From IMG/VR virus record IMGVR_UViG_3300033075_001674, positions 32,001-96,000 of that record: a stretch of DNA of 64,000 nt; one strand, written 5' to 3'. Made by a program: the position numbers and the translations under genes. How positions within the stretch are numbered: position 1 is the first letter of the stretch; each line of letters starts with the position of its first letter. Below, in pieces: positions 3,770 to 59,120 of the stretch. Under the pieces are notes generated by a model. That model was given only the letters and a program-made list of their open reading frames with translations, was not told the origin of the DNA and did no database searches. Origin of the DNA: a virus (Duplodnaviria > Caudoviricetes).

Positions 3770-5220
3770 TGAAGCTGGCCGACCTCCGCACCGATCCGCT
3801 GCCGCACCAGGAGCGGGTGAAGGAGCGCCTGAAGGGCGACCACCCCGGTCTTGTGGCGGTGCATGGCCTGGGGTCCGGCAAGACCCTCACGGCAATCAAC
3901 GTCCAGGACAGCCTGCGAGCCCCGGCGACTGTGGTCGTGCCCGCGGCGCTGAAGGAGAACTACCGGAAGGAGCAGAGGAAGCACCTGATCGGGGACCCCC
4001 CGCCCACGGAGCTGCAGACGATCCAGGCAGCTGCCTCGCGTAGGGGGGCCACGCCCAACGAGCTGCTGGTGGTGGATGAGGCGCACAAGCTCCGGGACCC
4101 GAACTCGGCTTCGTACCGGGCGATCCGCGACACGAAGCGAGACAAGACGCTGCTCCTGACCGCCTCCCCTTTCTACAACCACCCGCACGACCTCTCACCG
4201 CTGATCAACCTCGCGGCTCAGCAGGACCTGCTCCCCCTCGACCGGAAGAAGTTCGAGGACAAGTACATCGTCCACGAAAGGGCCCGACCGACCTTCACCC
4301 AGATGCTCCGGGGGGTGACCCCCGGAGAGATCCCCCATCTCAACCCGGCAACCGCGGGGGAGCTGCGGAAGATCTACAAGGACTGGACGGACTACCACCC
4401 CTCCTCCCAGGAGGGCTTCCCCCGGGTACGCCGGGAGGACGTGGAGGTCCTGATGTCCCCCGCGCAGAGGGACGTCTACAACACGACGCTCGACAAGGCG
4501 CCCTCCTGGGTGGCGGCCAAGGTGCGAAGCGGCATGCCTCCCTCCAAGCAGGAGATGTCGAACATGGCCGCCTTTCTGAGCGGCCCCCGGCAGGTCGGGG
4601 TCAGCACCGCTGCCTTCTCTCAGGGGGAGGTCCAGTCCCCGAAGATCGACAAGGCATTCGAGCGCATGCAGGCGCTGCTGTCGGGGAACCCCCGCGCCAA
4701 AGGGATCGTCTACTCGAACTACCTGGAGAGCGGGCTCTCCCCCTACAAGCGGAAGCTGGAGGCGGCGAAGATCCCCTTCGGGGAGTTCACCGGGGAGCTG
4801 AGCCCAAAGGAGCGGGACCAGATGGTCCGTGACTACAACGCCGGGAAGCTGCGCGCGTTGCTGCTGTCCAGCGCCGGGGGGGAAGGTCTGGACCTCAAGG
4901 GTACCCGGCTGGTCCAGATGCTTGAACCGCACTGGAACCAGGAGAAGCTCAAGCAGGTGGAGGGGCGGGCGATCCGCTACAAGAGCCACGAGGGCTTGCC
5001 CCCGGAGGAGCAGGAGGTCCTGGTCGAGCAGTACCTGTCGCACCTGGAGCCGAAAACGCGGGAGGGCCTGGCCGCCCTCCTCTTCGGCAAAGAGAGGAAG
5101 AACCGCGCCATCGGCGCGGACGAGTACCTCCACAACATGAGCCGCTCGAAAGGTCGGCTCATAGACGAGTTCCGAGCCCTGCTCCCGCAGCCACCCTTGA
5201 CGGGGCAGGCGGCTTCGTTA
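3769..5220 (+). CDS. SNF2-like superfamily 2 helicase
   Basis: HGLGSGKT, DEAH, TAS, GGEGLDL and QVEGRAIR motifs; TGATG coupling with the upstream gene. Ends at TTA 5218-5220 if TTA is stop, otherwise at TGA 5226. Confidence 0.88.
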
Positions 5221-5311
5221 CGATGAGGCACATGCACTCGTAGCTGCACGCAGCCAGAGATCCTCCGGTGTTTTTATTTCGTAGCCATCCACCTCTACGA
5301 CGGAGACACCG

Positions 5312-5611
5312 ATGAAGACTCTTCCAGAACAGATTGAGGAACACGAGACGTCGCAGCACGTCTTGAGACAGCTGGCGTTGGTACACACCGGACCTGCCCG
5401 GCACGCCTACAACATGCAGCGCCTCGCCCGCAAGGCTTCGGGGCGCGTTCTCTACCTCGCCCTCGCCCTCCTGCGAGGAGTCCCGTACAACGCGCTGGAG
5501 CGGACCTGTGCTGTGCCGCCCTCGGCCTCCGAGATTGCTCAGCTCGCCGGAGTGGGGGAGGAGGTGGCCCTTGGCTGGCTGGAACAAGCTGCGTGTCGTG
5601 ACGCTGCGTGA
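5312..5611 (+). CDS. phage hypothetical protein
   Basis: SD GGAG; segment LALALLRGVPYNALE resembles small phage proteins I recall beside Pth2-like genes (recall, not searched). Confidence 0.65.
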   Translation: MKTLPEQIEEHETSQHVLRQLALVHTGPARHAYNMQRLARKASGRVLYLALALLRGVPYNALERTCAVPPSASEIAQLAGVGEEVALGWLEQAACRDAA

Positions 5612-5969
5612 AGGGTAGGTCGGGTTCCGGGGAGCGCAGGCCATCCACGGAGTCCTGGCCTTCGCCGCAGAACACCCGAAGGAGGAGCAGGCGTGGCGCC
5701 TCTCCTCGAACACCGTCGTCTGGCTAGAGGCGGATGCCGACGAGCTGCAGCAGCTGCTCGACAGTGCCCGAGCCGCCAAAGTGAAGGTGAGCACCTTCCA
5801 CGAACCAGACCTTGCGAACCGACTGACCGTCGTGGCACTCAGCCCCTGCACTCGCGCGTTGAAGCTGACGCGAGGGGTGCCCCTGGCCGGGGTAGTTCAA
5901 GTGGCAGAACACGGGATTCTAAATCCCGACGTGAGGGTTCGAGTCCCTCCCCTGGCTCCGATGAAGTAG
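5571..5969 (+). CDS. Pth2-like peptidyl-tRNA hydrolase with in-frame TAG at 5616-5618 (readthrough candidate or pseudogene)
   Basis: SD GGAGGAGGT then TTG at 5571. Translation MAGWNKLRVVTLREG*VGFRGAQAIHG...NTVVWLE...FHEPDLANRLTVVAL...GVPLA matches the Pth2-type pattern K-x-V-V-x-R...AQxxH...EPD...T. The ORF track only calls it from 5781. Confidence 0.7.
5886..5957 (+). tRNA. tRNA with CUA anticodon (amber suppressor type), Gly-like body
   Basis: Full cloverleaf: acceptor GCCGGGG/CCCTGGC, D arm GTTC/GAAC, anticodon stem CGGGA/TCCCG with loop TT-CTA-AA (5919-5921), 4-nt variable loop, T arm GAGGG-TTCGAGT-CCCTC, discriminator T. CCA is not encoded (CCG follows). Confidence 0.92.
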
Positions 5970-5979
5970 CCTGCAGGGC

Positions 5980-10225: not shown

Positions 10226-10232
10226 GAGCGAC

Positions 10233-11720
10233 ATGGTAGCAGCCTTCACGATCAACCAGGATGACGGGGCCGGGGCCGGCACGCTCAACCGTTCGCGGTC
10301 CGGGCTCTGGCGGGACCAGGAGGTGACGCTCGTCGCGGAACTCGCGGGAAGCTACGCCTGGTACCTGCTGGACAAGCCTGGAGGTAGCGCAGCGACGCTC
10401 TCCGGGGCATCCAGCGATACCGCGACCATCACCCCTGATGTGAACGGGACCTACATGATCCGGCTCGTCTGTGGCCGGAGCGTATCGGTCCGTGTGTTCC
10501 GGGTCACCAAGGACTCCGCTGGGAACAGGGACGGTGTGTGGGCGCTTCCCGCCTTCGGCGAGGGGCCCAACGACGACAACGAGGGGGGAAACGAGCGGGG
10601 ATCCACCCCGACGATGGAGGCCATCTTCACGGACATCTGGACCGGGAACTTCCCCGGGGTGGCGGGGTCCGGAAGCTCCAACTTCGTGATCTACACGCAG
10701 GGTGGGGTCGATCTCCTGGAGGGGGAGTACGGTACTTTCGCAGAGGCCCTCACCGCTGCGCAGGCTCTACCTGGGATCGTGACCCTCCTGGTCAACGGGG
10801 ACGAGGACCCCCCGGCGATCCCCGCAGGCACGCATAACCTGGAGCGGCGGATCCGGCTCGTCGGGTTCACCAGCCTCTCCACCGGGGCGATCGATCTGGA
10901 TGTGTCATCTGGCGGGCAGCTTCAGAACGCATTCCACGTCGAAAATCTAAACCTGGTGGGGGAGCTGGGAAACCCGCTCTTCGTCGTGAGCTCGGGGGTG
11001 CAAGACCTTACGTTCGTTCGTTCGGAGAGGAGCGATGTCCCAGAGGGCGACGACCTGATCACCCTGGGGACCGGGACCAACACGCTGCGGGCCATCGAGT
11101 CCAGCTTTTCAACGGACGGGCAGGCCATTGTCAGCCCCTCGCTAGGGAAAGATCTGGTCGTCATCGCGGAGCGGGACTCCTTCTTCAATACGGAGTGCTT
11201 CCACGGTACCGCCGGCGAGCTGTACCTACGGCGAGATGGCACCAGCGTCATAGAGGCTACCGGCTTCTCGGGGACCTTGGTTCAGCAGAGCGGGGCCACC
11301 CGTTCCTTTCGGTTTCAGGCACTGGCCGGGACGGTAGGGAGCGATCCGGCGGACGGCACCAGCTGGACTACGGTTGGGACCGTCTACATCGACCCCGACA
11401 CTCTCGCTAACCCCCAGTTCACCACTCGTTCCTGGCTCTTCCATGCGGACGTCGAGGTGGCGGAAGCGTCCGCCGGCACGGTGCAGTCGAAGGTGCGCCT
11501 GGTGGATGCCTCTCTCACTGCGTTGGGTACGATCACGAGCACGCTAGGTGGCGCCAGCACCTTCCCTCAACACCTCTCCGCGGTGCTGACCGCCGGGGCT
11601 AGCAACGGGCAAGTGCGGTCCACGGGGACTGTCTACCTGGTTCAACTGCAACGACAAGGCGGCTCCGTCGGGGATGTTGCCTTCGTTCACAACGCCTTCG
11701 TCGAGGTATCCTGGAGCTGA
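10233..11720 (+). CDS. virion structural/tail protein with N-terminal PKD-like domain
   Basis: YAWYLLDKPGGSAATLSG...TITPDVNGTYMIRL is PKD-like; beta-rich body. Start is either 10224 or 10233. Confidence 0.65.
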   Translation: MVAAFTINQDDGAGAGTLNRSRSGLWRDQEVTLVAELAGSYAWYLLDKPGGSAATLSGASSDTATITPDVNGTYMIRLVCGRSVSVRVFRVTKDSAGNRDGVWALPAFGEGPNDDNEGGNERGSTPTMEAIFTDIWTGNFPGVAGSGSSNFVIYTQGGVDLLEGEYGTFAEALTAAQALPGIVTLLVNGDEDPPAIPAGTHNLERRIRLVGFTSLSTGAIDLDVSSGGQLQNAFHVENLNLVGELGNPLFVVSSGVQDLTFVRSERSDVPEGDDLITLGTGTNTLRAIESSFSTDGQAIVSPSLGKDLVVIAERDSFFNTECFHGTAGELYLRRDGTSVIEATGFSGTLVQQSGATRSFRFQALAGTVGSDPADGTSWTTVGTVYIDPDTLANPQFTTRSWLFHADVEVAEASAGTVQSKVRLVDASLTALGTITSTLGGASTFPQHLSAVLTAGASNGQVRSTGTVYLVQLQRQGGSVGDVAFVHNAFVEVSWS

Positions 11721-11723
11721 AGC

Positions 11724-12671
11724 ATGCCCCTTCCATCACACGTAAAGACCTGGCAGTTCGAGAACAACGTCGCCATCGCCGCGCAGGGAAGCGCCGAGGC
11801 CTGTGTGGACGCGATGTGGTTGTACGTGAAGGACACCCTCATCAACTTCGCGTCTTCGCCGTGGACCGTGGTGTCCAGCAGCGACGGTGTGACCTCGGGC
11901 GCATCTGACCTCTGGATTGACGCTGGGGACCTCGTTCACCACGGAACCACCCGCTCCTGGATTGTTCTGGAGCAGGTGGGGATGGGGGGCGGCAACTTCC
12001 AGATCTGCATCGACTTCAACTCCTCGACGGCCCACTTCGGTACCGTCGTCATCTCCGCCAACGCGGGCTTCACGGGGGGTTCAACGACCGCGCGCCCTAC
12101 GGCCACCGATGAGTACGTGCTCCTCTCCGTGGCGCAGATGGTGAACCTCTCTTCCGACGTGGGCATACGGTTGTCGATCATGCAGTCGTCAGACGGGCAA
12201 TGCACTCGGATCCTCATGGCCCATACCGGGGCTGTGCGTCTGACGGTGTGCCTGGAGACGCCGCACGAGACGTCTACAGGGTGGAACTACCCCCACGCAG
12301 TTCTTTGGCTTCCGAGCACGGCCACAACGCTGTCAGACCTCGTCGCGACCTACAACTGGAAGGCCCGCATCAACTCCACCAACGCGGTGGCAGTGTCCCT
12401 GGTGGAGGGGTTCTCCACGTACACGGGTCCGGCGGACACCACCTGGGGTAACATCGCGAACGAGGTCAGCGGGGAGTGGCCCATGTGGCCCTTCGCATTC
12501 GCATCGAGCACCGTGGGGGTGCGGGGGCGCCACGGCGCTTTCACTGACCTGCGGCTATGCTCCAGCGCTACTTCAGCGGCAGACACGTACCCCGCTGATG
12601 CCAGCAGGGTCTGGGTCAACTGGGGGGCGCTCATCATGCCCTGGGACGGAGGGGCGGTGAACCTGTCATGA
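11724..12671 (+). CDS. tail-associated structural protein
   Basis: Trp/Ser/Thr-rich beta-type protein within the tail cluster; SD GGAG. Confidence 0.55.
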   Translation: MPLPSHVKTWQFENNVAIAAQGSAEACVDAMWLYVKDTLINFASSPWTVVSSSDGVTSGASDLWIDAGDLVHHGTTRSWIVLEQVGMGGGNFQICIDFNSSTAHFGTVVISANAGFTGGSTTARPTATDEYVLLSVAQMVNLSSDVGIRLSIMQSSDGQCTRILMAHTGAVRLTVCLETPHETSTGWNYPHAVLWLPSTATTLSDLVATYNWKARINSTNAVAVSLVEGFSTYTGPADTTWGNIANEVSGEWPMWPFAFASSTVGVRGRHGAFTDLRLCSSATSAADTYPADASRVWVNWGALIMPWDGGAVNLS

Positions 12672-12946: not shown

Positions 12947-12985
12947 GAGCTGCCGACCGGGGGCGGGCTACAGTACCCTGCCGGA

Positions 12986-15900
12986 ATGGCAACGACCTGC
13001 TCCTCTCTGCTGGCTTGGGGCTCCTCCTGGGGGTTCGGGTGGGGAGGCCCGTCCTTCACGATCGGCGGCCCGCTGCCCAGTGAGGACCCGTTCACCGACT
13101 TCTGCGTGTGCGGGTCCGCCACGCAACAGCTCGCTTCCTTCGCTGAAGTCACGCTGACCCCTGGGGATGTGGATCACGGGGCCCCCAACGCCGACGGCAG
13201 CTACCGACTCAAAAGCGACGATGGCACCCCCTCGGTCGCCTTCTTCGACAAGGCGGTGGGGGAGAAGTCCACCCTGGAGATCGTGTTCAGCGTGGAAGGG
13301 GAGGCCAAGGACCTCGGCACCACCCAGCAGGCCATGTTCGTCGGGCTGTACGACGACGCACTCTCCTGCGCAGGTCTATTCCTGAGCCCCGCGGGGATCG
13401 CCTACGGGGCTAGCTACGACGACAGCCCCCTGGTCATCCCCAGCTCCGAAGGGCTCATCGTACCCGAGACCACGTACGCCCTTCGGATCGTCGTGGACAA
13501 CGATGTGCGAGCGGTCTTTGTTTACCTCTCCGACTTCGAGTACGCGAAACAACACGGCCCGAAGCTGAAGTTCGTGCTCCCCCTGCTCGACTCCCTGACC
13601 GCCCCTCTTCATGAGGAGGGGGCGTACGTAGCAGTTCTGGGCACGACCTACAGCGTGGAGATCGCGATCCAGTCCATCTGCATGGCCCCGGCCTCCCTCG
13701 TCGACAACTTCCCACCCACGGCAGATCCCGGGAAGGATGTTCGGAGGCTCGGGTTGGCCCCCTTCCGGCTCGACGGGAGCGGGAGCAAGGACCCCGAAGG
13801 AGGCCCCCTCTCCTATGAATGGCGAGCCGTGGCTCTCCCGCCCCTAAGCGCCCACCAGAGCTCCGGGCAGGACGGCCGCACGTTGGCCAGCGTCAGCGGG
13901 TACACCGACAAGCTCTACACGCTTCACGCCGAGGCCGGGGACGACGCCTTCAGCTACTCCGCAGGGGACATCCTGCGCGTGGGGGAGGTGCTCGCTACGA
14001 TCGTGATCGCAGACTCCGATGGGGACGGGGCTTTCTTCCAGGTCACGGAGGAGGTACTGCCGGCGGAGCTCTCGGACGCCCCCTTCCTCCTCATCCGGCA
14101 GGATGGATTCACGGACGCGACGGTGGAGAAGCCCTTGTACTCCCCGGACACGTACGGAGTGCATCGCTTCCAGCTCCGGGTGAGCGACGCCGCCTTCTCG
14201 TCCGACTGGACCTCGCAGATCACGGTGATCCAGCGGAGGGAGACTGCGACAGGTGTTGTGCCTGATACGTCACACCTCTGGACGTACCTGTCGGATACCT
14301 GGGGGCTCCTCGAAGACGCAGGCCGCATCGAGACGTTGTGGTCGTCGGTGGCCCAGGTCCTTGGCGGGGAGATGCTACGTATGCTGCAGGTAGCGGCGTC
14401 GTCCAGCCTGCAGACCATCCCCCGACGGATCGTGCGTAAGTGGTTGAACTACGATCTGCTCCTCCGGGAGCCATTCATGGAACTGACCCGGTGCGAAGCG
14501 AGGTTCTCCGGGGCGGTGTCCGAGGCGCTGGACTCCAAGGGTCTCGACTACGAAGGCGAGACCCTGGTCGTCTACATCCCTGGTCGCACCGACCTCGTGA
14601 CGGTGACCATACCCGCAGGTGACACGCCCCAGGCGCTGGCGACCGCTCTGCAGACCGAGCTGGACTCCGCAACCAACGGCCTCACGGTGACCGCTCAGAA
14701 GAAGGCCCCCAGCTCCTGGGAGCTGTTGCTGCTTGCCCCCTTCCCTTTCATCGTCGTGGCGGGAACCACCGCCCTCTTCACTGTGGGCGATGCCAGCTCC
14801 CCCCTGAACGGCACCGGGGCGGAGCGCATCGACGCCTACACGCTCAAGGTGGGGGTGTCCCTGCTCAATCGGGGGGTAAAGAAAGGGGACCTCCTCAGCG
14901 TAGAGGGCACCGTGGTGCAGGTGAAGAGCCTGCAGGACAACTCCGCTGACCTGTACCGCTTCCAGCGCATCCAGACGGTGGAGGCTCTCCCGCCCTACGC
15001 CGACTCCTGGGAGATCCTTCTGAAGTGCACCTCCCCCCAGCTCAACTTCTGGGGAGGAGGGGTCGTCGCGGGGGACCTGGCGATGGTGAGCGTGAACGGG
15101 TCGCTCATGCGTACCCCCGTCGTGGGCCTCGTGGAAGCGCAGCCATCCGTGTTCGGACTGACCCTCGACGAGAGCCTGGCTGATCTGCTGGGGGCGGAGG
15201 GGAGCAACCTCTACCTCTGGGGGGTGTACCGCCGGTCCTACCTGCCGATCGGGGATGAGGTCGTGTCGGTGCCCACTCTCTCGGTGAACCCCTGGGAGGC
15301 CCGGGAGGTAAACATCCTCCGGCAGCACGTGGACTACTGGATCGATACCTTCCGGGACCAGAAAGTGCTGGCGTTCCGGAGCGGCCTGTTCACCGACGGG
15401 CTGACGACGATCACCACCCCCAGGCTGTGGGCGGAGGACACGCAGCTCGACAACAGCGCAGCGATCGAGGCGAACTTCGGGCTCACCGTGGGGTTGAAGC
15501 GCGAGGATCTGAACGAGGTCAACAACATCGACTACCTCTCTGCGGTGCGCGGGCTGTGGTTCGCTCGGGCCAAAGGGCCTCGCATCGGTAACCTTCGGAT
15601 CGCAGCGCAGATTCTCTTCGGTCTGCCCTTCGCGGAGGAGCGTGGGGTCGTGCAAGAGATCGACCCAAACTACACGCAGGACAGGGGTCGAATCCTCCTG
15701 GCTGACAAGGCCAACCCGGACAACGTGCGGAGCTACACCTACCCCTCCACTCTGAGCGTGGAGGTCAACCCGTCCACCCGGAAGACGTACGTGGTCGGGG
15801 ACGAGGTGGCCCAGTTCGCACCGCTGGTGGAGGGGGTGTCCATCACGGACAACACCAAGAACCCTGCCTGGGCGGACCCCTACGTCTCCCAGGGGGCCCT

Positions 15901-16891
15901 GTCCCGTCTGGAGACCACCCACCTCTACCTGGTGGAGGCGGATGTCACGGCGTTCAACCTCTCCAGCTTGCTGTTCGTCTCGAACTTCCTGCAGCGCATC
16001 TCCCCTGCGCGCACCAAGCCTCTCTTTCTGGTGCGTATGCGCGACCTGACTCCCGACACCGTGGACGTCGAGGATGCCCTGGAGATGACCGGGGTCCTGG
16101 AGCTCTACGAGAGCCCCTACACCAAGCCCTTCTCCTACCCTCTGGACGACATCCCGAACCTGGGGGAGCGAGAGGGGTCGGCCGCTATGTTTGATCAGCC
16201 TGACCCCTCTCCCCCCTGGGTTCTCACAGATCCCCTCGTAGGGGCGTCCCAGAGCAAGTTCGACACCGACATCGACCCTGCTACGGGGGCCCCCGCCACC
16301 TCCGACGACTCTACCCCCTGGGGGTGGGACACCGCCGCCCTGTCGCCGGAGAGCTTGGTGAGCGCGAAGCTCAGCTACGTCCACGCCGGAGGGAATATCC
16401 CAGCAGACCTGGAGGCAGAGCTGCGGGTGGATCAGCCGTTGATGGTAGGAGAGACGCTCCTCTACGGGAGGTCCTGGGTCCCGGCCTTCGGAGAGCTCGG
16501 CTACCAGCTCGGGGGACCGGTCACCTCTGTGGCGCCCCTGTCCGTCGACGCGGCTGAGCTGCGGATCGTAGGGTGGCCCTCTGCGTCCACCTTCGACTAC
16601 GTGGTGAAGATCTTCGTGAACTCGGTCCTGGTATCCACCCTGGAGGTAACCCACACCGCCGACGGTACCTCTCGCTGGTACTGGGGTCCTTCCCCGGCGG
16701 GGGCTACGCTTCCCGGGGGAGGGTTCAGCGTGTCTCCGGGAGATGAGGTCCGAGTCGGCATCTACGCCACCACGGAGGAGCGTTCTCGCCAGAGGCTCAG
16801 GCTCGTCTCGCTGACCCTTGGGGAGGGCGCCTCCTGGACATCCGGGGGACCGCTCGCGGCGGACACCTACGTAATCCACAGAGGTCTGTTA
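12986..16891 (+). CDS. large baseplate/tail protein with PKD-like domain
   Basis: PTADPG...LDGSGSKDPEGGPLSYEW is PKD-like; NFG..VG...YLSAVRGLW...GP...N......GLP resembles baseplate wedge proteins. Ends at TTA 16889-16891 if TTA is stop; standard-code end is 16945. Confidence 0.7.
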
Positions 16892-44115: not shown

Positions 44116-44672
44116 CTACGAGAGATCCTTTCTCGGCTGGGGTCTGGGCCCCGGCCGTTTGCGTCGCAGTCAGCGACGAGAACGAACGTCTGCATGTACG
44201 GGGTGCTGCCGCTCTCGATGACCGTGCGGGTGAGGGTGGTGCCTGCGGGGATGGGTGTGGCGGCCTGGGCCCTGGTTTCGTAGCGGAGGACGCACTCCCG
44301 GAGGTGGAGATCGTCCTCACTCTCAGCGGTCTCGAAGTACGGGCCCAGCCACCTGTCCGCTGAAGGTGGATAGAACCTCTCCGTGGGGCACCAGGGGATG
44401 GGCTCGCCTGGCTGGGCGAGGTTGAGGATCACCTCGACATCCCGCTGACAGAAGAAGGTGACCGCCCCAGAAGAGGTGATGCACCGAAACCTCAAGCCCA
44501 GGGACATCGCGGTGGGGTCGCGAGCGAAGGCGTTGGTGATGGTGTAGCGGGAGTCTTCCCCGCGCAGAGGGTTGCGGATCGACAGGCCGAGGAAGTCCAG
44601 AGGCAACTCGATGAGGTTGCTCTTCGGGATCCGATGGTACTCGGCCCTCTCTGGGTCAATCAGCGACGCCAC
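44088..44672 (-). CDS. hypothetical protein
   Basis: GTG 44672 with SD AAAGGA; lies between two in-frame TTA codons (44678 and 44090) of track ORF 43980..44825. Confidence 0.55.
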
Positions 44673-44675: not shown

Positions 44676-44825
44676 TAATCCTTTCTCCGAGGAGGGCTCG
44701 GGCGGCGAGGAGGGCGAGGAGGAAGATGGCGTTGAGGAAGAGTCGCAAGGTTCGGGGTCTCCCAGGAGGAGCTGAAGGAGGAGGACGAACCACCCCCCGC
44801 TGCTTTCGTTGTGGTCGGTAGGCAT
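44676..44825 (-). CDS. possible small Ser/Pro-rich peptide
   Basis: 49 codons from ATG 44825 to TTA 44678-44676; a separate gene only if TTA is stop. Confidence 0.3.
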
Positions 44826-47900: not shown

Positions 47901-50900
47901 CTTCACCGAGCTCATCAAGGGCGCGGGCATCAACGTGGACAAGAAGGGGGACGAGTTCGTGCTGTCCCCTCTCACCAACAGCCACATCCTCAAGATGAGC
48001 AAGGGGGAGATCTCCGACCCCACGGCCGTGGTGCACTCCAAGCGCGACGAGAACGGGGTCTTCAAGACCATCAAGGGCGGGCTCTTCGACGACAAGATCA
48101 CCGGAGGACACGGCGGCACTGGCTGGTCCCACGTGAAGCTGCCGGAGCCCATGCCCAACCCGATCTTCGAGGAGCCCATCAAGAAGATCCTCGGCATCAC
48201 GGAGACCACCTACCAGGCCCTGGTGGAGGGCAAGCAGGGGGTCAACCCGCTGACAGGGAAGATCGGCCCCTACGAGCGCGGGTTCCTCGTAGGGGGCTCG
48301 GCGTTCAAGAAGCTCCTCGGGAAGATCGACGTCTCAAAGGAGCTGGCCGCCACGAAGAAGGCCCTCGACTCGGCCAAGCCCTCCCAGGTCAACCCGCTCT
48401 ACAAGAAAGCCCGGTACCTCCAGGGGCTGGAGAAGACAGGGATGCGCCCCGACGAGGCGTACGTGCTCGACTACCTGCCCATCGTGCCCCCCAAGCTCCG
48501 CCCTCTGTCCAACCTGGACGACGGAGCGCTGCACTACGACGGTATCAACGGCATGTACAACCAGCTGGGGCAGCTCACGAACGCGATGAACCACCCATCG
48601 CAGAAGATGCTCCCCGATCAGTACAAGGCCGAGGGGCGCAGGGCTCTCTACGACGGGGTGTCCGCTCTCTTCGGTACAGCTGCTCTACCCGAGGGAGCCA
48701 AGGACAAGGGCATCCTCCACATGATCGCCGGCAGCCAGCCGAAGCGCGGTATCGCCCAGAAGGGCCTACTCTCCCGCAGGCAGGATGCCTCGGCCCGCGC
48801 CACGATCATCCCTGAGCCGAAGCTCGGGCTCGACGAGATCGGGCTACCCAAGGAGATGGCCATGACCATCCTCCGCCCACAGCTCGTGCGTCAGCTTGTG
48901 GTGCAGGGGAGCGCCAAGGATGAGCTGGCAGCGCAGAACCTCCTGGCGGAGGCCCACAAGGGCAAGGAGGACCCCTCCATCCAGTCCGCCCTCAACAACC
49001 TGGCGAACAACGAGCTCGTCATCTCGAAGCGTGACCCTGCGCTGTGGAAGTACAGCGTGCAGGCGTTTCGTCCGCGCATCGTTGAGGGTAAGGCGATCCG
49101 GATTCACCCGCTTGTGACCGGGGGATTCAATGCCGACTTCGACGGCGACAGCGCCAAAGGGCTGGTGCATGTTGAAGTTTCTACGGAAACCGGGAACAAG
49201 GAGGAGATGCCACACCTCGGATCCCTTCCTGTTCATGGGCTCATCAACCTTCGTGACTTTCCCCGCCAGCAACTCCTTCGGGATGACGGGCGCGTAGCGG
49301 TTTACAGCGTGCCGGAGGGGGTGGTGGTGCCCTCCCACCTCAACGGGGTCGGCATCGTGCGGATGCCAGTCACCGAGTTTTCCATCCACCGTGACTGCCC
49401 TCTCTGGAGGGTGACCAGCCGTGCGGGCCGGTTGCTGGAGGTAAGCGAAGACCACTCCCTGGCCACCCTCGACATGAACACCCTGGACGTCGTGGAGACC
49501 AAGGCGTCGGGAAGCGAGGGCAAGGTCTTCCCTGTCATGCGCGCCCTCGCCCACTCTCACGGCAAGGACGCGTGGGACACCTCCTGCTTCGAGGGTGTCT
49601 CGGAGAGGGGCTACCCTCTTCCCCAGTTCCCTCTCACCAAAGCATCCGGTTGGTTCCTGGGGGCGATGGTTGGGGATGGGTGGGTGAGCGACACATCCAA
49701 GTACACAAACGGCACAGCCATGCAGATCAGTTTGGCTTACGGGGCGAGGGGGGTTGAGGTAGCAGCCCGGTGGGGGTCCTTCCTGGATAACCTCGTCCCC
49801 GAGATTGCCAAACGATCCTACCGAAACGAGCACGAGTTCGAGGGGAAGCCCGCTCTCTCCTTCCGCGACACTGTGACCCACTCCGCTCTCGGGCGTCTCC
49901 TCCAGGAGCAGCTCGGGCACGGGGCCCGGAACAAGCACCTGCCCCTCGACTTCCTGGAGTGGAACGAGCAGGCACGTCGGGGCCTGCTCGCTGGTCTGCT
50001 GGACACGGATGGCTCGGTGACCTGGGTGCACGCGGCGACCAAGAACAAGCCTCAGTTCCAGGCCGCCTACCACACCACCTCCGCACAGCTCGCCATCGAG
50101 GTCGTATTGCTCTGCCAGTCCCTTGGCATCGTCGCCAGCTACACCGAGTACGCGAAGCGGGACGGGCTCGCCTACAACATCTTCCTGTCCACCTCCACGA
50201 TGCAGGAGGCCACCTGGCTGGACCTGGCCCATCCGGAAAAGAAGGAGGCCCTGGAGCGGCTCTGGGGGAGCGAGCCTGTGATCTCGGGCAGGGGGGACTG
50301 GGTGCCCATGCCCCCGGCTGTCCGGAGCATTCTGCTCACGGAGCTCCGCAAGAAGGGGGCTGCCCGCAAGGAGAAGACCGAGGAGGGCAAGCGCGCTTTC
50401 AGCCTCTACGTGGTACTGAAGAAAGAGGAGCCCATCATCACGCGGGAGACCTTTGCCCTGCTCACCGAGATGCTCGGGGATGCGGTGTGCAGCGAAGGGC
50501 TGATGTCCTCGTGGTACGCGCTCTGCACCAACCCCACGCTCTCCTGGGATGTGGTGGAGACGGCGGAGGACACGGGGGAGCTCCACGAGATGTACGACCT
50601 CACCGTTCCGGACTCCTACACCTTCACGATGGCCAATGGCGCCGTGGTCTGGGACACCATGAGTGTGCAAGCCGTGCTCTCCGACGAGGCAAAGCGCGAC
50701 GCGGCTCGCATGCTCCCCAGCAAGAACATCTTCAGCGAGAGCACCGGAGGGGTGGCCTACCTGCCCTCGATGGAGTCTCTCCTGGGACTCCACCGTCTGT
50801 CCCTTGTCGGGCAGTCGAAGGGCGCCTCTTTTAGCCACGACAAGGACGCCATCGCGGCCCTGCACCAGAAGAAGGTGAGCCTCGATGAGCAGATCAAGGT

Positions 50901-53900
50901 CGGGGGTGTAACCACTACCCCCGGGCGAGTCCTGCTCGCTTCGGCGGTGCCGGACGAGATGCGGAACAAGATCCTCACCGACTTCTCCCTGGAGCTGAAC
51001 AAGAAGGGCGTGAACGCCGTCTTCACCGAGATCGGGAAGAACCACGCCCCGAGGTTCGCTGCGCTGGCCGACAAGCTGAAGGATCTGGGGTACGACACCT
51101 CGACGGGCATCATCAACACCCCCCTGGCCCCCCAGGGCAAGGTCGGGGTGGGCACCCACTCCTTCAAGCTGTCGGACTTCATCGCCGACACCGCCTCTCG
51201 CGACCCTCACCTGCACGCCGCGGACAAGGAGGTGGAGGAGCTGAAGAAGAAAGGTCTTCGACCCGAGGAGCTGAAGCGCCAGATGGCCGAGGCATACCTG
51301 CGGGCGGACGTGGCCATCCAGAAGCAGCACGCAGCCTCCGGGAAGATGCAGGACAACGCGCTAGGCAAGATGACCCGGGCGGGCATGAAGCCCAGCAAGG
51401 ACCAGTACAAGCAGATGGTCCTGGCTCCGATGGTGATGACCAACTCCAAGGGAGAGCTCATCCCCGTACCCGTGCGCCGCAGCTACGGGGAGGGTGTGGA
51501 CCAGATGGGCTACACCGTGCAGCAGGAGGGCGCGCGCAGCGGCACCATCAAGAAGGTGCAGGAGGTACAGGAGCCCGGGTACATGACCAAGCTGCTGCAG
51601 AACACCTCGATGCACACCCTCATCGACACCCACGACTGCGGCACCCAGAAGGGCCTCCTGGTGGGAGTGGGGGACTACGACATCATGGATCGCCACCTGG
51701 CCACCCCCCTCAAGCTCAAGGGGCTGGACCTGCCCGGGGGGACTCTGCTCAGCAAGGACATCGTGGATCGAATCCGCAAGGTCGACCCGTCCGCGAAGCT
51801 GGTGGTTCGCTCCCCGCTTCACTGCCACTCTGAGAAGGGTGTCTGCCAGAAGTGCTACGGGCTAGACGCCAACGGCAAGCACCTGACGGTGGGATCCAAC
51901 GTGGGTGTTCTGAGCGCACACACGCTTGGAGAGCGCGCGGTGCAGCTCACGCTGAAGGCGTTCCACTGCCTCCACGAGCACTCCCTTGTGCTCGTTCGGC
52001 ACAAGGGCAGGGTCTACCACACCACGCTCCGCGCTGTGTTCGAGGGTTCTCCCGGGACGGAGCCCGAGGTCCGGATCCCCCAGGATCTCGAGGTGTGGGG
52101 GCCGGAGGGGTGGGTTCGCGTGTTGAGCGCGAGCCGCCACCTGCAAGAGCCTGGGACCCAGATGGTCTTTGCGCGTACACGCTCCGGCTTCGGCCTCCTC
52201 AGCCAGGACAACCACCCCCACATGCTCGCAGAGAACCTGGCGGTCTGCGAGCGGTGCGGCACCTACCCCAAGCGAAGCAACGGAGGAAAGCAGCACTACT
52301 GCCGGCGCTGCGGGCGAACCTGGCAGGGCGAGCTCCCGGAGCCAGAAGACTTCCAGATGGTCATGCCGTCCGAGCTCTCGGAGAAGTCCCACACCGCCAA
52401 GGTGAGCTGGGGGCCGAGCCCCACCGAGCAGAACCCACCCCTGCGCTCAGGTTGGCTCGCGGGCATGTTCTGCGCAGAAGGGTACATTCACGCGCAGAAC
52501 CGGGAGCAGGGTTCGTATGTGATCGGCTTCGGTATCTCCCAGAACCAGGGCACCCCGGTTTACACCAAGCTCGGAGCGTGCCTGGCCCAGGAGTTCCCGG
52601 AGGCCAGGTTGGGGGCTCGACCCAGGGCCTTCCAGGTCTACGGCCGGGAGCGAGGTCTTTTCTTCGAGAAGACGTTCGGGAGGTACTCCCGGAACAAGGG
52701 GCTGCCGGAGGGGTGGAGCGGTTTGCCTGTGGATTGGTTGGCGGACTTCGTCTCCGGCGTCTTCGATGGGGACGGCACCCTGGTCTCCACCAAGGACAGC
52801 GCCTGGAAAGTTGGAAGGATCGACACCACCAGCTACTTGCTGGCGCAACAACTCCACCACATCTTGCGCTCCAGAGGGGTCCACTCCCGAGTGCTCCTCT
52901 CACCGTGGCGCAAGGCATCTCTGCACCAGGGGTTCGCCGTCACCTTCCCCATCACGGCAGAAGCGAAAGAGATGCTCTCCTCCGCGCTGAAGTTGGCGAA
53001 CGTGGAGGCTCGTCCCCACGGAAACGAGGAGCGGTTCGGAGAAGTGGTGGATTACGTGCGCCCCGTGCGGTTCGGGGCGCCTCCCTGGGTGTACGACCTT
53101 GAGACGGAGACCAGCACGCTCTGCGTCAACAACGTGTGGACCCACAACTCCGGCGGAGTCGCTTCGGCAGGCGGAGGCGCCATCGGGTCTTTCGGTCGCC
53201 TGGAGCAGCTGACCTACCTCCCCGACCAGATCCCCAACTCCGCGGTGCACGCGAACGTGTCGGGCAAGATCACCAAGATCGAGCCAACCCCCACGGGAAC
53301 GAACATCTGGGTGGGGCAGCACATGCACTTCGTGGGCAAGGACAGCAAGGGCAACCCCCTGCACGAGAAGCAGGAGGGGGTGTTCCACACCAAGCCCTGG
53401 AGCCCCCCGCAGGTGGGCAAGGAGGTGAAGCCCGGAGACTTCCTCTCGGACCCCAACCGCACCCACCTCAACCCCCACCGCTTCTTCGAGGCCACCAAGA
53501 GCATGGACAGGGTGCAAGAGAAGCTCGCCGAGGAAATGCACGGCCTTTACGCAGACGAAGGCGTGCGCAAGCGTGCTGTCGAGGTGGTGGTGCGCAGCAT
53601 GGGCAACCTGACCCAGATCGAGCACCCGGGCGGCAGCCCCGACTTCCTGCGGGGGCAGACCTACTCCCGTTCCGCGGTGGAGCAACTCAACAAGGAGCTC
53701 AAGGCCAAGGGTCAGCCCCTGGTGGTCCACAAGCCGGTCTTGCGCGGGGTGAACCTGCTGCCCCTCGACATGACCACCGACTGGATGGCCCGCCTCAACC
53801 ACCAGAAGCTGCGCGGCACCATGATGGAGGGCGCTGCGCAGGGCTGGGCCAGCGACATCCACGGCCGACACCCCGTCCCGGGGCTCATGTACGGAGCCGA

Positions 53901-53955
53901 GTTCGGGCGCAAGAGCATGGATCCTCGGAAGGCAGGCAAGACCAACTTCTACTAA
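44902..53955 (+). CDS. rpoBC: phage multisubunit-type RNA polymerase, fused beta and beta' subunits, with two inteins
   Basis: Beta motifs GPGG, TPEG, NFED, GDKLSHRHGGKG, RMNIGQ and LKLVH; beta' motifs LPIVPPKLRP, NADFDGD, GYMTKLL, QLTLKAFH and C-terminal Zn site. About 2121 aa after intein removal. Confidence 0.95.
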   Translation: MATLDPHEDFQETLKAVTSGLQEAFPIKGRTSSLHLVSVHAGQMPDPEDIGSQYATRVAGKSWMTPIQGVIELRDNETGKVLMTQKTRLMSIPSMTKRFSFIYNGQEHQSANQWQLKPGVFARRQDNGELEARFNVVNRAAFKMKLDPQSQLFHVEYKKANLPAYPLLRAMGVSDQQMEESWGKQVFEANKKVKRQAGVLAQFYRTSTNGKAPPESEEDLAAHLRQVMKESKVRPEVVKQTLAHEVDHVDHTLMLNAGTKLLAVQNGAPEDDRDSLIYKTLRSTGDFLKDQIQASSRNLAMKVQRQLNKGDLKDIRHAFKPGLYDDAVRRLFQSSLVNPAKQINPVDMIGTAMQTTIMGPGGIKSDIQVTDAAKEINPSQFGMIDPLTTPEGGATGISLRLPIGVKRIGDQPHIPVYSIKQKKTIYVNPAQMMAAKKVFADEVEYRNGVPHPLREKVKALGKGNEPEVISFHEADYVMKDPSQVYGTTVNLVPFLQNNSGGRVSMASRHIEQSISLRDRDKPLVRVNAPGGTHTFEEMIGHQSAHTAPVDGRVTRVTADAIHVADASGKEHKVHLYNNYPVNDAKSVLHSTPLVKVGDAVKKGGVVADNNYTRDGVLALGKNLRTAFMSYHGLNFEDGIVITESAAKKLTSNHLHKEMLPIPEVNNQLIFDAKKFQAAHPLAFSKDQLGHIGADGVAKVGAKIRPGDPLVLAMQPYQLKDRTGIGAIRKSLTNQLVDKSLRWESDVPGEVVSVHRNDQGIHVHVRTEEPVRVGDKLSHRHGGKGIITSILPDKDAPRSKDGKPVDILFQPGGLGGRMNIGQVLEAQAGKIAEKTGKPYFVKNFDPKVQDWTRHMMGELKKHGLSDTEELFDPKTGISYGQVMTGPIHFLKLVHQMDKKESMRSGMSLPRVQSKEKYDPTTLQPASGGGTGGQSWGQLGIYALLAHGAKGILRESMTYKSEGEDPETNEAKRWRSQHNEVWNAIQSGQPLPPPKPTFSFHRFTELIKGAGINVDKKGDEFVLSPLTNSHILKMSKGEISDPTAVVHSKRDENGVFKTIKGGLFDDKITGGHGGTGWSHVKLPEPMPNPIFEEPIKKILGITETTYQALVEGKQGVNPLTGKIGPYERGFLVGGSAFKKLLGKIDVSKELAATKKALDSAKPSQVNPLYKKARYLQGLEKTGMRPDEAYVLDYLPIVPPKLRPLSNLDDGALHYDGINGMYNQLGQLTNAMNHPSQKMLPDQYKAEGRRALYDGVSALFGTAALPEGAKDKGILHMIAGSQPKRGIAQKGLLSRRQDASARATIIPEPKLGLDEIGLPKEMAMTILRPQLVRQLVVQGSAKDELAAQNLLAEAHKGKEDPSIQSALNNLANNELVISKRDPALWKYSVQAFRPRIVEGKAIRIHPLVTGGFNADFDGDSAKGLVHVEVSTETGNKEEMPHLGSLPVHGLINLRDFPRQQLLRDDGRVAVYSVPEGVVVPSHLNGVGIVRMPVTEFSIHRDCPLWRVTSRAGRLLEVSEDHSLATLDMNTLDVVETKASGSEGKVFPVMRALAHSHGKDAWDTSCFEGVSERGYPLPQFPLTKASGWFLGAMVGDGWVSDTSKYTNGTAMQISLAYGARGVEVAARWGSFLDNLVPEIAKRSYRNEHEFEGKPALSFRDTVTHSALGRLLQEQLGHGARNKHLPLDFLEWNEQARRGLLAGLLDTDGSVTWVHAATKNKPQFQAAYHTTSAQLAIEVVLLCQSLGIVASYTEYAKRDGLAYNIFLSTSTMQEATWLDLAHPEKKEALERLWGSEPVISGRGDWVPMPPAVRSILLTELRKKGAARKEKTEEGKRAFSLYVVLKKEEPIITRETFALLTEMLGDAVCSEGLMSSWYALCTNPTLSWDVVETAEDTGELHEMYDLTVPDSYTFTMANGAVVWDTMSVQAVLSDEAKRDAARMLPSKNIFSESTGGVAYLPSMESLLGLHRLSLVGQSKGASFSHDKDAIAALHQKKVSLDEQIKVGGVTTTPGRVLLASAVPDEMRNKILTDFSLELNKKGVNAVFTEIGKNHAPRFAALADKLKDLGYDTSTGIINTPLAPQGKVGVGTHSFKLSDFIADTASRDPHLHAADKEVEELKKKGLRPEELKRQMAEAYLRADVAIQKQHAASGKMQDNALGKMTRAGMKPSKDQYKQMVLAPMVMTNSKGELIPVPVRRSYGEGVDQMGYTVQQEGARSGTIKKVQEVQEPGYMTKLLQNTSMHTLIDTHDCGTQKGLLVGVGDYDIMDRHLATPLKLKGLDLPGGTLLSKDIVDRIRKVDPSAKLVVRSPLHCHSEKGVCQKCYGLDANGKHLTVGSNVGVLSAHTLGERAVQLTLKAFHCLHEHSLVLVRHKGRVYHTTLRAVFEGSPGTEPEVRIPQDLEVWGPEGWVRVLSASRHLQEPGTQMVFARTRSGFGLLSQDNHPHMLAENLAVCERCGTYPKRSNGGKQHYCRRCGRTWQGELPEPEDFQMVMPSELSEKSHTAKVSWGPSPTEQNPPLRSGWLAGMFCAEGYIHAQNREQGSYVIGFGISQNQGTPVYTKLGACLAQEFPEARLGARPRAFQVYGRERGLFFEKTFGRYSRNKGLPEGWSGLPVDWLADFVSGVFDGDGTLVSTKDSAWKVGRIDTTSYLLAQQLHHILRSRGVHSRVLLSPWRKASLHQGFAVTFPITAEAKEMLSSALKLANVEARPHGNEERFGEVVDYVRPVRFGAPPWVYDLETETSTLCVNNVWTHNSGGVASAGGGAIGSFGRLEQLTYLPDQIPNSAVHANVSGKITKIEPTPTGTNIWVGQHMHFVGKDSKGNPLHEKQEGVFHTKPWSPPQVGKEVKPGDFLSDPNRTHLNPHRFFEATKSMDRVQEKLAEEMHGLYADEGVRKRAVEVVVRSMGNLTQIEHPGGSPDFLRGQTYSRSAVEQLNKELKAKGQPLVVHKPVLRGVNLLPLDMTTDWMARLNHQKLRGTMMEGAAQGWASDIHGRHPVPGLMYGAEFGRKSMDPRKAGKTNFY
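49150..50655 (+). mobile_element. intein 1 (LAGLIDADG), atypical Ser...Trp-Asp/Thr junctions
   Basis: NADFDGD|SAKG...VSEDH...LGAMVGDG...LAGLLDTDG...MYDLTV...ANGAVVWD|TMSV; 502 aa. Confidence 0.88.
51967..53148 (+). mobile_element. intein 2 (LAGLIDADG plus zinc ribbon) in the trigger loop
   Basis: KAFH|CLHE...QDNHP...LAGMFCAEG...SGVFDGDG...VYDLET...THN|SGG; 394 aa. Confidence 0.92.
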
Positions 53956-53964
53956 GATGCCCGC

Positions 53965-55176: not shown

Positions 55177-55179
55177 GGG

Positions 55180-55806: not shown

Positions 55807-55821
55807 GTACAATGAGGACCC

Positions 55822-57882
55822 ATGACCACGAAGCTCTTCCTGCCGGTCACCGAGGATGCTCCCGAGAAGCATGCCGCCGCCATGACCAAGCTCCCTCTCG
55901 ACCCCCAGCAGTGGCCAGCCGCTCTTTACCAGAAAGCGGTGGAGGTCCTGCCGGAGCTGGCGGAGTACGACCTCAACATCGCTCTCGACCAGCAAGACAT
56001 GTCTTCGGCCACCGCTCTGGGGGCTGTGCTGGTCTCGCTGAAGCAGGCCCCTTCGCTGGACATCATGGGCCAGGTTCGCCCCACCGCCCCGGGCAAGACC
56101 CTGCGCATCCCGATCCTGATCCTGCGCGGGCAGCTCTACCCCCTCGATCTTCTCGTGGTCCCGGACTCCCGGGGCGGGGAGGCCCGCACCGTCCCCCTCA
56201 CCCCCCGCCGGCTGCGCGCCGCCCTCTTCCGCAGCGACATCTTCCAGACCACCAGCCAGCCCCCGGGTCCCTCCAACCTTGCCGGCCTCCTCTACCCGAG
56301 CAGCCGCGACACCTTCTACGGCGGCAACTCCTCGATCAACCAGAAGCAGGCCTCCCTGCTGGAGGACCTGCTCGTCGAGGGGGCAGACCAGGAGGGGCTC
56401 AGGGCCAAGGTGGCCCAGCACAAGGGCTTCGCGGACAACCCCGCGGCTCGCCCGGCTCTCGAAGCCCTGCTGTCCACCTACGAGAAGGTGGCCAACGTGG
56501 AATGGAATCCCACGGCGCTGCAGATCCTGAAGATCGACTCCGACACCTACGTGGTGAAGTCGGCGAACACGGAATGCTGGGAGCCCAGGGCTCGCACCCT
56601 GTCGAGGGCGGAGCTCATCAAGGAGGCGAGCCCCGAGGAGATCGCTGTTCTCGACACCGAGGGCGAGATCCTCGATGGTCCGGAGACCGCGGCAGGCGAG
56701 ATGGCCGAAGAGCCGGAGGTCCACGTCATCTCCACCCCCGGGGTGGCCAAGGTCACCTCCATCGAAGGCATGCCGATGGTGGGGCTCGTCCTACCCTCCC
56801 TCTTCGACCTCACGGGGCTCCTGGTCCCCATCGGCCTCTTCATGGGTGAGGCGACCGCGCTGGCCCCCGAGATCTACGGGGAGCTGATCGACACCCAGGT
56901 CCCCCCGCATGACGTCGCGAGCGATCCCTCCGGCTACGGCTTCTTCCTACAGACCGAGGGCGAGACGAGGGGCACCGTCCCGATGAGCATCGTCACCAGG
57001 GTGACCACCTCCCAGGGCAGCGCCTGGCTGGTCAGGACCGAGGACGGCAGCACCGGCATGATCGACTACACCGTGGGGGCGAGGAAGCCCTTCGCCACCG
57101 ACGGCGTGCTCCACCTGCCCCACACCTTCCGGTGGATGCCCCTGCCAGCCACCAAGGTGCAGCTCGCCGGCGGAGCTCCCTCGGGCGAGGAGGAGGATCC
57201 GCTCTTCGATGGCCTCACCGAAGACGAGGAGGGGGGAGGGCCGGGCTCGCCCGTCCTGGAGAAGAAGGCTGCCCTGCGCAAGCTCGCCTCCCGCAGGGTG
57301 GACCTCCGCTACCACGGCGCGGACACCTGGAGCGTCTCGGGCCCCCTGCTGGAGAAGGTGGGGGGTCGCTACGACCTCAACGAAGAGGATACGAGGCTGC
57401 TGCTGATCTCCGCCGGCCTGAGCAAGCAGGCGATGGCGAGCGTGATGGTCAAGGCGGCCACCACGGGCGGCAAGGTGCGGATCCTCGCCGGGGTGGAGCA
57501 GTTCACCCCCCCCGCCTCCCACATCAAGGCAGCCCAGGAGAAGAAGGCATCGCTCCGGTTCTCTGCCCCGCTGCCCCCCGGGCTCGACCTCGACGCCGGC
57601 ATCAAGATCGCCGCGGAGTTCCAGGACGGCGACACCATCGACAGCTTGCTCGGTCTGTCGCTCCTCACCCCCGACAACATCTCCACCTTCGTGACGCACA
57701 TCGTGGAGATGGAGAAGGTGCAGGCGATCCTGTGCGATGCCCTGCTCGCATCCAGGTTGGGGCTCAAGGCCTTCGATGAGTCCTCGCTGGAGAAGGCGGT
57801 CCAGGGGATGGAGGCGGCGATCGAGGGCACCTACCTGCTTCGTTTTCAGCAAGGAGGTTCTACCGTATCCTCGAACCTATGA
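55822..57882 (+). CDS. putative virion structural protein
   Basis: 686 aa, many KxA motifs, C-terminal TIDSLLGLSLLTPDNI..F segment. Confidence 0.65.
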   Translation: MTTKLFLPVTEDAPEKHAAAMTKLPLDPQQWPAALYQKAVEVLPELAEYDLNIALDQQDMSSATALGAVLVSLKQAPSLDIMGQVRPTAPGKTLRIPILILRGQLYPLDLLVVPDSRGGEARTVPLTPRRLRAALFRSDIFQTTSQPPGPSNLAGLLYPSSRDTFYGGNSSINQKQASLLEDLLVEGADQEGLRAKVAQHKGFADNPAARPALEALLSTYEKVANVEWNPTALQILKIDSDTYVVKSANTECWEPRARTLSRAELIKEASPEEIAVLDTEGEILDGPETAAGEMAEEPEVHVISTPGVAKVTSIEGMPMVGLVLPSLFDLTGLLVPIGLFMGEATALAPEIYGELIDTQVPPHDVASDPSGYGFFLQTEGETRGTVPMSIVTRVTTSQGSAWLVRTEDGSTGMIDYTVGARKPFATDGVLHLPHTFRWMPLPATKVQLAGGAPSGEEEDPLFDGLTEDEEGGGPGSPVLEKKAALRKLASRRVDLRYHGADTWSVSGPLLEKVGGRYDLNEEDTRLLLISAGLSKQAMASVMVKAATTGGKVRILAGVEQFTPPASHIKAAQEKKASLRFSAPLPPGLDLDAGIKIAAEFQDGDTIDSLLGLSLLTPDNISTFVTHIVEMEKVQAILCDALLASRLGLKAFDESSLEKAVQGMEAAIEGTYLLRFQQGGSTVSSNL

Positions 57883-59120
57883 TCACAGACACGCCTTGCC
57901 GGAGGTACCTCCTGCACCTGATGCTGGGGGGTAAGACCGTCCAGCAGGTTGAGGATCACGCCCTGGAGATGGGGCTCGACTACGGCAGCATCCAGCTGCT
58001 GGTCCTCATCCGGGAGAGGGGGGCGCCCCCGGAGGTGTTCCGGCCCCGAGACCTCAACCACCGACCGAGCCAGGAGTTCCTGGAGTCCGTGGGGCTGCTC
58101 GGCAACTTCCCTCGCCTCAGCCGCGAGGGGGGCGCGGCGTTCCAGCTCCACCAGAACCCGAGGGCCAGAGAGATCCTGGAGCTCGGGTTGCTGGGCAGGA
58201 TGCCGATCCACGAGATCCTCAGCTTGCTCGCGGAGAGCAAGGTCCGCACCCGCGTGGAGGTGCTCGAAGCCTACGCCCACCTCTTCTGGGATGTGGCCGG
58301 CATGGACTCCACGGAGCTCAGGGCCCTGCTGCACCTGAGAACGCCCGATGTCGCCCGGCTCCAGAAGCTCTCGGCCCTGCAGGATAGCCGGGAGGCCGAG
58401 GCAGGCATGCCCGTGGCGGTCACCCCCCAGCGTGGAGGGGGTGGGGGTGGAAGGCCCGACGCCAACTCGCTGCCCCTGCCCTACGAGACCCTCACCCCCG
58501 AGCGGCCCACCCCGTCGGAGCTGCGGCAGAGCAGGCAGTGGCGCGCCCACGGAAAGCGGGACTTCGTACGCCAGCTGGCCAGGAGTATGCCCCTGCACGA
58601 GCGGGCACGGCAGGCCGACGCCCTGAAGCGTGCACACTACAGCGACCCCAGGCTCACCATCTCCAGCCTGCCGGCGAGCCCTCTGACGGTCGCACTTACA
58701 CGGTCCTACCTGGGGATGCAGATGGACCGCCTGGACTTGAAGAAGGCCTACGAGGTGCTCCACCACCTGGTCTTCCACCGCACTGTGGAGCAGGCGGTGA
58801 GCAACCACCCCGAAGCCCCACTGCGCCTGGGATCTCTGCTCAGCAGCGCAGCCACGCTGGTCCGCATCCAGAAAGAGCTCGGAGCAGGCACCGCCTCCCT
58901 GCAGAACCAGATCCAGGTCATGGCGCTGCAGACCAACCTGGAGGGGCACTACGGCAGCCCCAACGAGCTCACCGGCGGTCACCACAACCTCGACCCCTAC
59001 TCCGACGCCGACAGCGCCAACCTCAAGGAGATCACCGGCAAGGGCGCGGGACGCACGGCCAACCAGGTCACCACGGTGGATGCCGATGAGGAAGAGGAGG
59101 ACGAGGAGACCGTGGGGTTA
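57879..59120 (+). CDS. hypothetical protein
   Basis: Acidic tail DADEEEEDEETVG followed by TTA 59118-59120; standard-code end 59276 would overlap the next gene by 121 nt. Confidence 0.65.

Follow-up and report, generated by a model that had tools for sequence, protein, structure and literature searches.

The DNA considered here is a window of 64,000 nucleotides (nt), corresponding to bases 32,001-96,000 of a single linear IMG/VR phage contig of 108,475 bp (G000), and the feature under study is the triplet TTA, normally a leucine codon, with which a considerable share of the genes of this contig come to an end. The contig has a GC content of 65%, its completeness is estimated by CheckV at 59%, and no similarity to deposited phages was found at the DNA level. 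Its Pfam matches include DNA polymerase A, a DnaB-type helicase, primase, RusA, SNF2 and DEAD helicases, a gpA-type large terminase with an intein, a PG_binding_1 endolysin and a polynucleotide 3'-phosphatase. The TTA sites of the window, in window coordinates as used throughout, are the following.

3766-5220, plus strand: SNF2/helicase gene (Pfam Helicase_C and SNF2-rel_dom), ending in TTA at 5218-5220, with a TGA two codons further on.
12986-16891, plus strand: gene of 1301 amino acids (aa), ending in TTA at 16889-16891; the next gene starts at 16903.
24575-24751, minus strand: gene of 58 aa with the end PFERR-TTA (24577-24575), missed by calling with translation table 11.
34013-34570, minus strand: gene of 185 aa with the end DDDEDDR-TTA (34015-34013).
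34609-35193, plus strand: gene of 194 aa with the end STVGG-TTA (35191-35193), followed by a G and then by the ATG of the next gene.
44088-44672, minus strand: gene of 194 aa with the end RETAR-TTA (44090-44088).
44676-44678, minus strand: TTA in a 5' leader, between the Shine-Dalgarno sequence and the GTG start of the 44672 gene; no gene end.
57879-59120, plus strand: gene of 413 aa with the end EEDEETVG-TTA (59118-59120).

The initial annotation of this DNA had placed eight in-frame TTA triplets at gene boundaries. All eight lie where it put them, with seven forming the final codon of a credible gene, while the one at 44678 falls in a 5' leader and says nothing either way, since the open reading frame (ORF) upstream of it is of low complexity. 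As to the overlaps that table 11 creates between these genes and their neighbours, those of 43, 104 and 121 nt were reproduced and that of 95 nt follows from a read-through of 96 codons in the 24751 gene, while the site at 44090 gives 76 nt and not 136 nt; the overlap at 34015 varies with the start chosen for the neighbouring gene. The 43-nt overlap is that of the 12986-16891 gene, to which table 11 adds a tail of 17 codons that scores low in coding potential.

Genes were called over the whole contig with a gene finder built for this work, which combines codon log-odds, trained on long ORFs with a high GC content at third codon positions (GC3), with a bonus for Shine-Dalgarno sequences, and which selects genes by dynamic programming with a penalty on overlaps; it was run with table 11 and then with TTA added to the stops. 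Under table 11, the contig holds 104 genes and 34,449 codons, with TTA in frame 15 times. Eleven of these 15 triplets lie 2-52 codons before the stop, against a background of 16% for the last 55 codons (binomial P = 1.6e-6), and of the four remaining "internal" ones three have an ATG or GTG start no more than a few codons further on in their own frame, with a clear Shine-Dalgarno sequence in two cases. Coding potential falls downstream of TTA. In-frame TTA is restricted to gene ends, whereas ATA, AAT, TAT, AGT and ATT, rare codons used as controls, are distributed uniformly over the length of genes. When TTA is taken as a stop, no internal TTA is left among 34,071 codons and 22 genes end in TTA, 20 of them robust (well-scoring), whereas the off-frame TTA rate of 0.13% predicts 0.14 by chance; off-frame TTA itself occurs normally (89 cases). 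The stops of this model are TGA in 72 genes, TTA in 22, TAA in nine and TAG in eight, and about one gene in five ends in TTA.

The gene model itself is better with TTA among the stops. Its score rises from 11,590 to 11,988, the summed overlaps longer than 10 nt drop from 880 to 396 nt, most of the long ones being gone, and small genes hidden under table 11 are revealed, for example one whose end overlaps the next start in the form TTATG. None of the six control stops (CTA, ATA, AAT, TAT, ATT and AGT) gains more than +26, and with four of them the score is lowered. Moreover, when triplets were scanned for a change from coding sequence on the upstream side to non-coding on the downstream side, TTA resembled TAA, TAG and TGA. 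From TTA to the next standard in-frame stop the median distance is 34.5 codons, compared with 28 codons after ordinary stops (Mann-Whitney p = 0.54); therefore no selection for back-up stops is apparent, and the sequence that follows TTA looks ordinarily post-stop. The base 3' of TTA, in 20 cases, is C ten times, G six times, T four times and never A.

Homologous gene ends were compared in a clade set of six assemblies, which stem from separate samples and were produced by different pipelines (two from IMG/VR, three from Logan and one from NCBI): G000, G004, L035, L036, L051 and L054. Forty genes of G000 have syntenic counterparts in the sister phage G004 (47.6 kb, 66% GC), at 26-75% amino-acid identity, mostly 40-75%, and each of the four in-frame TTA of G004 lies 1-34 codons ahead of the table-11 stop. 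In two genes, the TTA of G000 and a standard stop of G004 occupy exactly the same alignment column (STVGG-TTA at 35191 against PMVGQ-TGA, and RETAR-TTA at 44090 against VSTTK-TAG), and in a third the match is near (PFERR-TTA at 24577 against PFER-TGA). The G004 homologue of the 34013-34570 gene, of 194 aa, ends with a TAG a few residues from DDDEDDR-TTA, and the 66-aa tail that table 11 adds to this gene is unconserved. For the 57879-59120 gene, the C-terminal alignment sets EEDEETVG-TTA against TETEEKV-TGA; homologues of 406 and 423 aa have the same acidic tail at their end, P0002 itself with TTA there, and the 51-aa table-11 tail is likewise unconserved. The relation is also found in the reverse direction, with RLYEGA-TTA in G004 against RLYREAAP-TGA in G000.

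In the other four assemblies in-frame TTA is found at gene ends only, with one exception in L035 that lies upstream of the likely true start. In L036, the NCBI metagenome, TTA occurs in frame twice, each time at a gene end and once in an acidic tail matching the 59118 site, while in the endolysin gene of L051 the TTA is codon 326 of a table-11 ORF of 424 codons and the homologues measure 317-347 aa. The homologues of one further gene end in a single column as SLFDL-TTA (G000), SLFGL-TTA (L051) and GLQF-TGA (L054). The tails after TTA, up to 66 aa in the comparison of G000 with G004 and up to 98 aa across the clade, are not conserved, and within the clade neither a TTA at a conserved internal leucine nor a conserved tail was found. 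Three pairs of genes lie in the same frame across a TTA, and homology and domain boundaries identify them as separate genes: the homologues of g13 match g13 alone, and the PNK3P domain begins at the own ATG of g103, ahead of which G004 has a standard stop. A kinase-phosphatase fusion across TTA was considered and rejected, the upstream ORF having no kinase match and the phosphatase domain starting at its own ATG. More members of the clade were sought in further IMG/VR scans and in a JGI metagenome scan, and these returned G004 only.

The distant relatives G001-G003, phages of about 190 kb with a GC content of 54-60% and a helicase identity of 46-47%, read TTA as leucine: in G001 the triplet stands in a conserved leucine column, the use of TTA as a stop lowers the gene scores, and G001 has a tRNA-Leu(UAA). 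The helicase homologues of these three genomes end a few residues from the point of the TTA at 5218.

In this contig, TTA occupies stop positions, and stop positions only. The proposal of the initial annotation that TTA acts as a terminator is supported by codon position, by re-prediction and by the ends of homologues, and from these sequence comparisons it appears very likely that TTA ends proteins in the whole phage clade. The reading preferred here, to which we assign a probability of about 0.6, is that UUA is read in this clade by a release factor. UUA would then be a fourth termination signal, at which the protein ends and after which the next gene starts at the usual distance; a class-I release factor accepting U, besides A or G, at the second codon position would release the chain, and the phage genome would drift between TAA and TTA. 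The factor would come from the host, probably of a myxobacterial lineage, or, less likely, from the 41% of the phage genome that the contig lacks. The association of the phage family with Myxococcales genome bins is the reason for which a host factor with UUA among its codons is preferred. As to the source of the factor, and in the machinery check proposed with the initial annotation, no gene with an RF-1 domain was found in G000-G004 and no tRNA-Leu(UAA) on the contig, which is about 59% complete; TAA and TTA together account for 31 of the 111 stops of G000, roughly as large a share as TAA alone has in G002 and G003 (about 30%).

Several observations weigh against a reading by release factor. 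The reading factor is so far a candidate only, G000 being about 59% complete, and we know of no bacterial RF1 or RF2 that reads U at the second codon position. In about 400 Myxococcota genomes covered by two screens, none was found to use TTA as a stop, and a Myxococcales metagenome-assembled genome (MAG) that holds a distant relative of the phage has a tRNA-Leu(UAA). A weak counter-hint is offered by the end of the 55822-57882 gene, which reads GTA, four codons and TGA in G000 and TTA, four codons and TGA in L036; the TTA of L036, in this short tail, could be read as a sense codon.

With regard to the host, relatives of the phage polymerase gene were found in two MAGs labelled Myxococcales and Deltaproteobacteria, in which TTA is either almost unused (two in-frame cases in 60,000 codons of the Myxococcales MAG, which has 70% GC and a tRNA-Leu(UAA)) or an ordinary sense codon; no TTA-stop signal was found in the MAGs G005 and G006, which hold distant relatives. 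The first Myxococcota screen, a BLAST search for tRNA-Leu(UAA) in 400 genomes, was too noisy for use, and the candidates returned by a screen for the pattern GGAG-N-TTATG were rejected, as they were merely genomes of lower GC content or had TTA as an ordinary sense codon. A broader scenario may be put forward tentatively and at somewhat less than even odds: a free-living lineage, probably within the Myxococcota, and several unrelated phage lineages infecting it would use a UUA stop read by an altered release factor, and the present clade would have gained the trait on moving to that host. If true, a lineage-wide UUA stop would be the first sense-to-stop reassignment outside organelles. Two side observations concern the use of TTA in this group. 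The Myxococcota genomes G166, G056 and G192 (L143-L157; 66-70% GC) contain 2-2.5 internal in-frame TTA per 1000 codons, whereas other Myxococcota genomes of similar GC content (G005, G140) have a rate 10-60 times lower, and the phage-like contigs L048 and L049, from Myxococcales/Deltaproteobacteria MAGs, have no in-frame TTA and no TAA stop in about 14,000 codons.

The main rival to the reading of UUA by a release factor is that the codon is unassigned or "hungry", the tRNA-Leu(UAA) being absent, scarce or destroyed, and that the ribosome stalls on it and is then freed by rescue; ArfB-type hydrolysis, ribosome splitting with peptidyl-tRNA hydrolase, and trans-translation are the candidate routes. 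This course of events is unlikely on balance, even if several facts speak for it. TTA is the rarest codon in genomes such as the 70%-GC MAG described above, the phage family possesses a PTH2-type peptidyl-tRNA hydrolase adjoining its tRNAs, with a copy in G000, and G001-G003 each encode a transfer-messenger RNA (tmRNA); rescue systems are known to resolve unassigned codons (PMC6207430). Proline, which makes up 6% of residues overall, directly precedes TTA in five of 20 cases, an enrichment that is not significant when ordinary stops are the reference (Fisher p = 0.13). Both PTH2 and tmRNA occur in relatives that read TTA as leucine and are, for this reason, not specific to the trait. Furthermore, rescue is slow and tagging by tmRNA normally leads to degradation, which ill fits a mechanism that would serve one gene in five, including the helicase and large proteins of structural size, and back-up stops are not enriched after TTA. 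PTH2 as a factor peculiar to the clade was also considered and rejected, the protein being family-wide.

The remaining alternatives are far less probable. TTA might still encode leucine, stops having been lost by changes of TAA or TGA to TTA and the tails and fusions so made being tolerated; a single base change would be enough, distant relatives do read TTA as leucine, and the short tail of the 55822-57882 gene, with its like geometry in G000 (GTA) and L036 (TTA), would agree with it. Stop loss, nevertheless, should produce many different sense codons, while TTA alone is seen, at 20-22 gene ends of G000 and at more in the other five assemblies; it leaves unaccounted for the absence of TTA from the interior of genes, the tails have a non-coding composition and are never conserved, and in three cases unrelated neighbours would be fused, so that this explanation is very improbable. 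It is barely conceivable that UUA triggers a frameshift or a bypassing event joining the ORF to downstream sequence, as has been proposed, with partial experimental support, for the terminase of the actinophage Hau3, where bypassing is UUA-dependent (PMC10732093). The ends of homologues largely refute this for the present clade, and neither event is needed, because the proteins are complete at TTA, where homologues have ordinary stops, and the downstream genes encode different proteins with their own Shine-Dalgarno sequence and start; in addition, no stop is created in the +1 frame, the base after TTA being A or G in only six of 20 cases, and a +1 frameshift and a quadruplet reading were rejected on the composition of this base. 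Finally, the ribosome might see something other than TTA, if the triplet had arisen as an artefact of sequencing or assembly, if a modified base in the DNA had been misread as T, or if UUA were edited to UAA in the mRNA. It is in keeping with this that TAA and TTA together make up 31 of the 111 stops of G000, roughly the share of TAA alone in the relatives G002 and G003 (about 30%). An assembly artefact is contradicted by the independent assemblies, since the six members of the clade show the pattern at different sites and come from different samples and pipelines. Genes on both strands are affected, ordinary TAA stops coexist with TTA and the 89 off-frame TTA are normal; as to editing, no U-to-A type is known to us, and altogether such a misreading is most unlikely.

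A sense-to-stop reassignment of this kind is, as far as could be found, not published for any phage or bacterium: the full-text literature search turned up no account in which UUA or TTA serves as a stop in either, in agreement with the statement of the initial annotation that no precedent was known. To our knowledge, the published code changes of phages and bacteria convert stops to sense codons or exchange one sense for another, and changes from sense to stop are confined to a few organelles. The closest parallel is NCBI table 23, of the mitochondria of Thraustochytrium and other labyrinthuleans, in which the leucine codon UUA has become a terminator beside the standard stops and which was likewise deduced from gene ends and alignments of homologues. 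That code, however, belongs to an organelle that has very few genes and a release factor of its own, whereas here it would belong to a clade of double-stranded DNA phages of about 185 kb, with 65% GC, that depend on bacterial translation, and there is no evolutionary connection between the two. In vertebrate mitochondria (AGA/AGG) and in bacteria of high GC content with unassigned codons, such as Micrococcus luteus, disused sense codons end translation, either by a specialised release factor or by stalling; neither case involves UUA or a phage, and in M. luteus the unassigned codons are not regular gene ends.

Phages with recoded stops (TAG to glutamine in code 15, TGA to tryptophan in code 4) resemble the present clade in that their code departs from table 11 and gene calling fails, and G000 also carries a tRNA(CUA) of the suppressor type; the direction is opposite, from stop to sense there and from sense to stop here, with TAG still terminating. 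The regulatory, "hungry" UUA codons of Streptomyces (bldA), together with the bypassing in the Hau3 terminase (PMC10732093), share with the present case a high GC content, a very rare UUA located at the ends of ORF segments, and an outcome decided by the availability of tRNA-Leu(UAA). In the Hau3 terminase, in contrast, UUA lies inside one conserved protein and translation resumes, while in the present clade UUA follows a complete protein, and the ORF after it is unrelated and has its own start.

If UUA terminates translation in this clade, then either U at the second codon position is recognised by a termination system of the bacterial type, or chains are released efficiently by a non-canonical route, and both would be new termination biology. 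In practical terms, the table-11 annotation of such phages would be wrong for about one gene in five: proteins would be given meaningless tails, neighbouring genes would be falsely fused or made to overlap, and small genes would be overlooked. A fourth stop codon would also hinder the exchange of genes and would serve to mark host range, and a UUA stop would represent a natural counterpart of engineered recoded organisms.

The suppressor-type tRNA lies directly downstream of the PTH2-like gene, shortly after the helicase gene that ends at 5220.

5571-5885, plus strand: PTH2-like peptidyl-tRNA hydrolase ORF (Pfam PF01981, E = 2.5e-4, 21.7 bits, with a cut-off of 23).
5886-5959, plus strand: the only tRNA of the contig, with anticodon CUA (amber suppressor type), U73 and no long variable arm (ARAGORN; Rfam tRNA, 64 bits).

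An Rfam search of the contig returned no RNA besides this tRNA. The PTH2-like ORF, with a coding potential of 0.25 per codon and a GC3 of 0.81, contains an in-frame TAG at codon 16 (5616-5618), aligned to the proline of DLP(R/K)G in the PTH2 genes of G001-G003, and it is the only ORF of G000 with an internal TAG. It has no stop of its own and enters the tRNA, its frame closing only at the TAG of 5967-5969; processing of the tRNA by RNase P would leave the PTH2-like mRNA non-stop. TAG still ends genes in this genome, as indicated by its stop-like behaviour genome-wide and by g77, whose TAG column is TGA in G004. TAG as a sense codon, as in code 15, was rejected, because the scan shows TAG acting as a stop and homologues end at or near it, and so was a read-through of TAG joining the InPase protein to the next gene, because homologues end near the InPase TAG. 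In G001-G003 the PTH2 gene is found beside tRNA arrays, with 12-35 tRNAs in each genome, and each has one tmRNA, of the one-piece type (in whole-genome coordinates, G001:65726-66086, G002:140813-141154 and G003:39712-40054); the tags end in ...AQAA in G001 and in ...LRAA in G003.

Other features of the contig are independent of these sites. Near RusA, a co-directional overlap of 101 nt (22656-22756) stays unexplained by TTA, in line with a caveat of the initial annotation, and it may be real, since G004 has kept a similar one, of 74 nt. A region of 741 nt (25269-26011) received no confident gene call and lies within a long table-11 ORF of the minus strand (24769-26007); among 47 ORFs surveyed across the contig, two have a DNA_pol_A match and one an HNH_3 match, hints that the polymerase gene may be split or invaded. 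The intein-containing large terminase (gpA ATPase) occupies 60085-63189, and its G004 homologue is about 400 aa longer. Lastly, the ORF of 3017 aa at 44902-53955 has a homologue of 3363 aa in G004/L035 with the RNA polymerase domains Rpb2 and Rpb1 and a faint LAGLIDADG match (homing endonuclease or intein type), and from these domains it looks like a fused beta/beta' polymerase.

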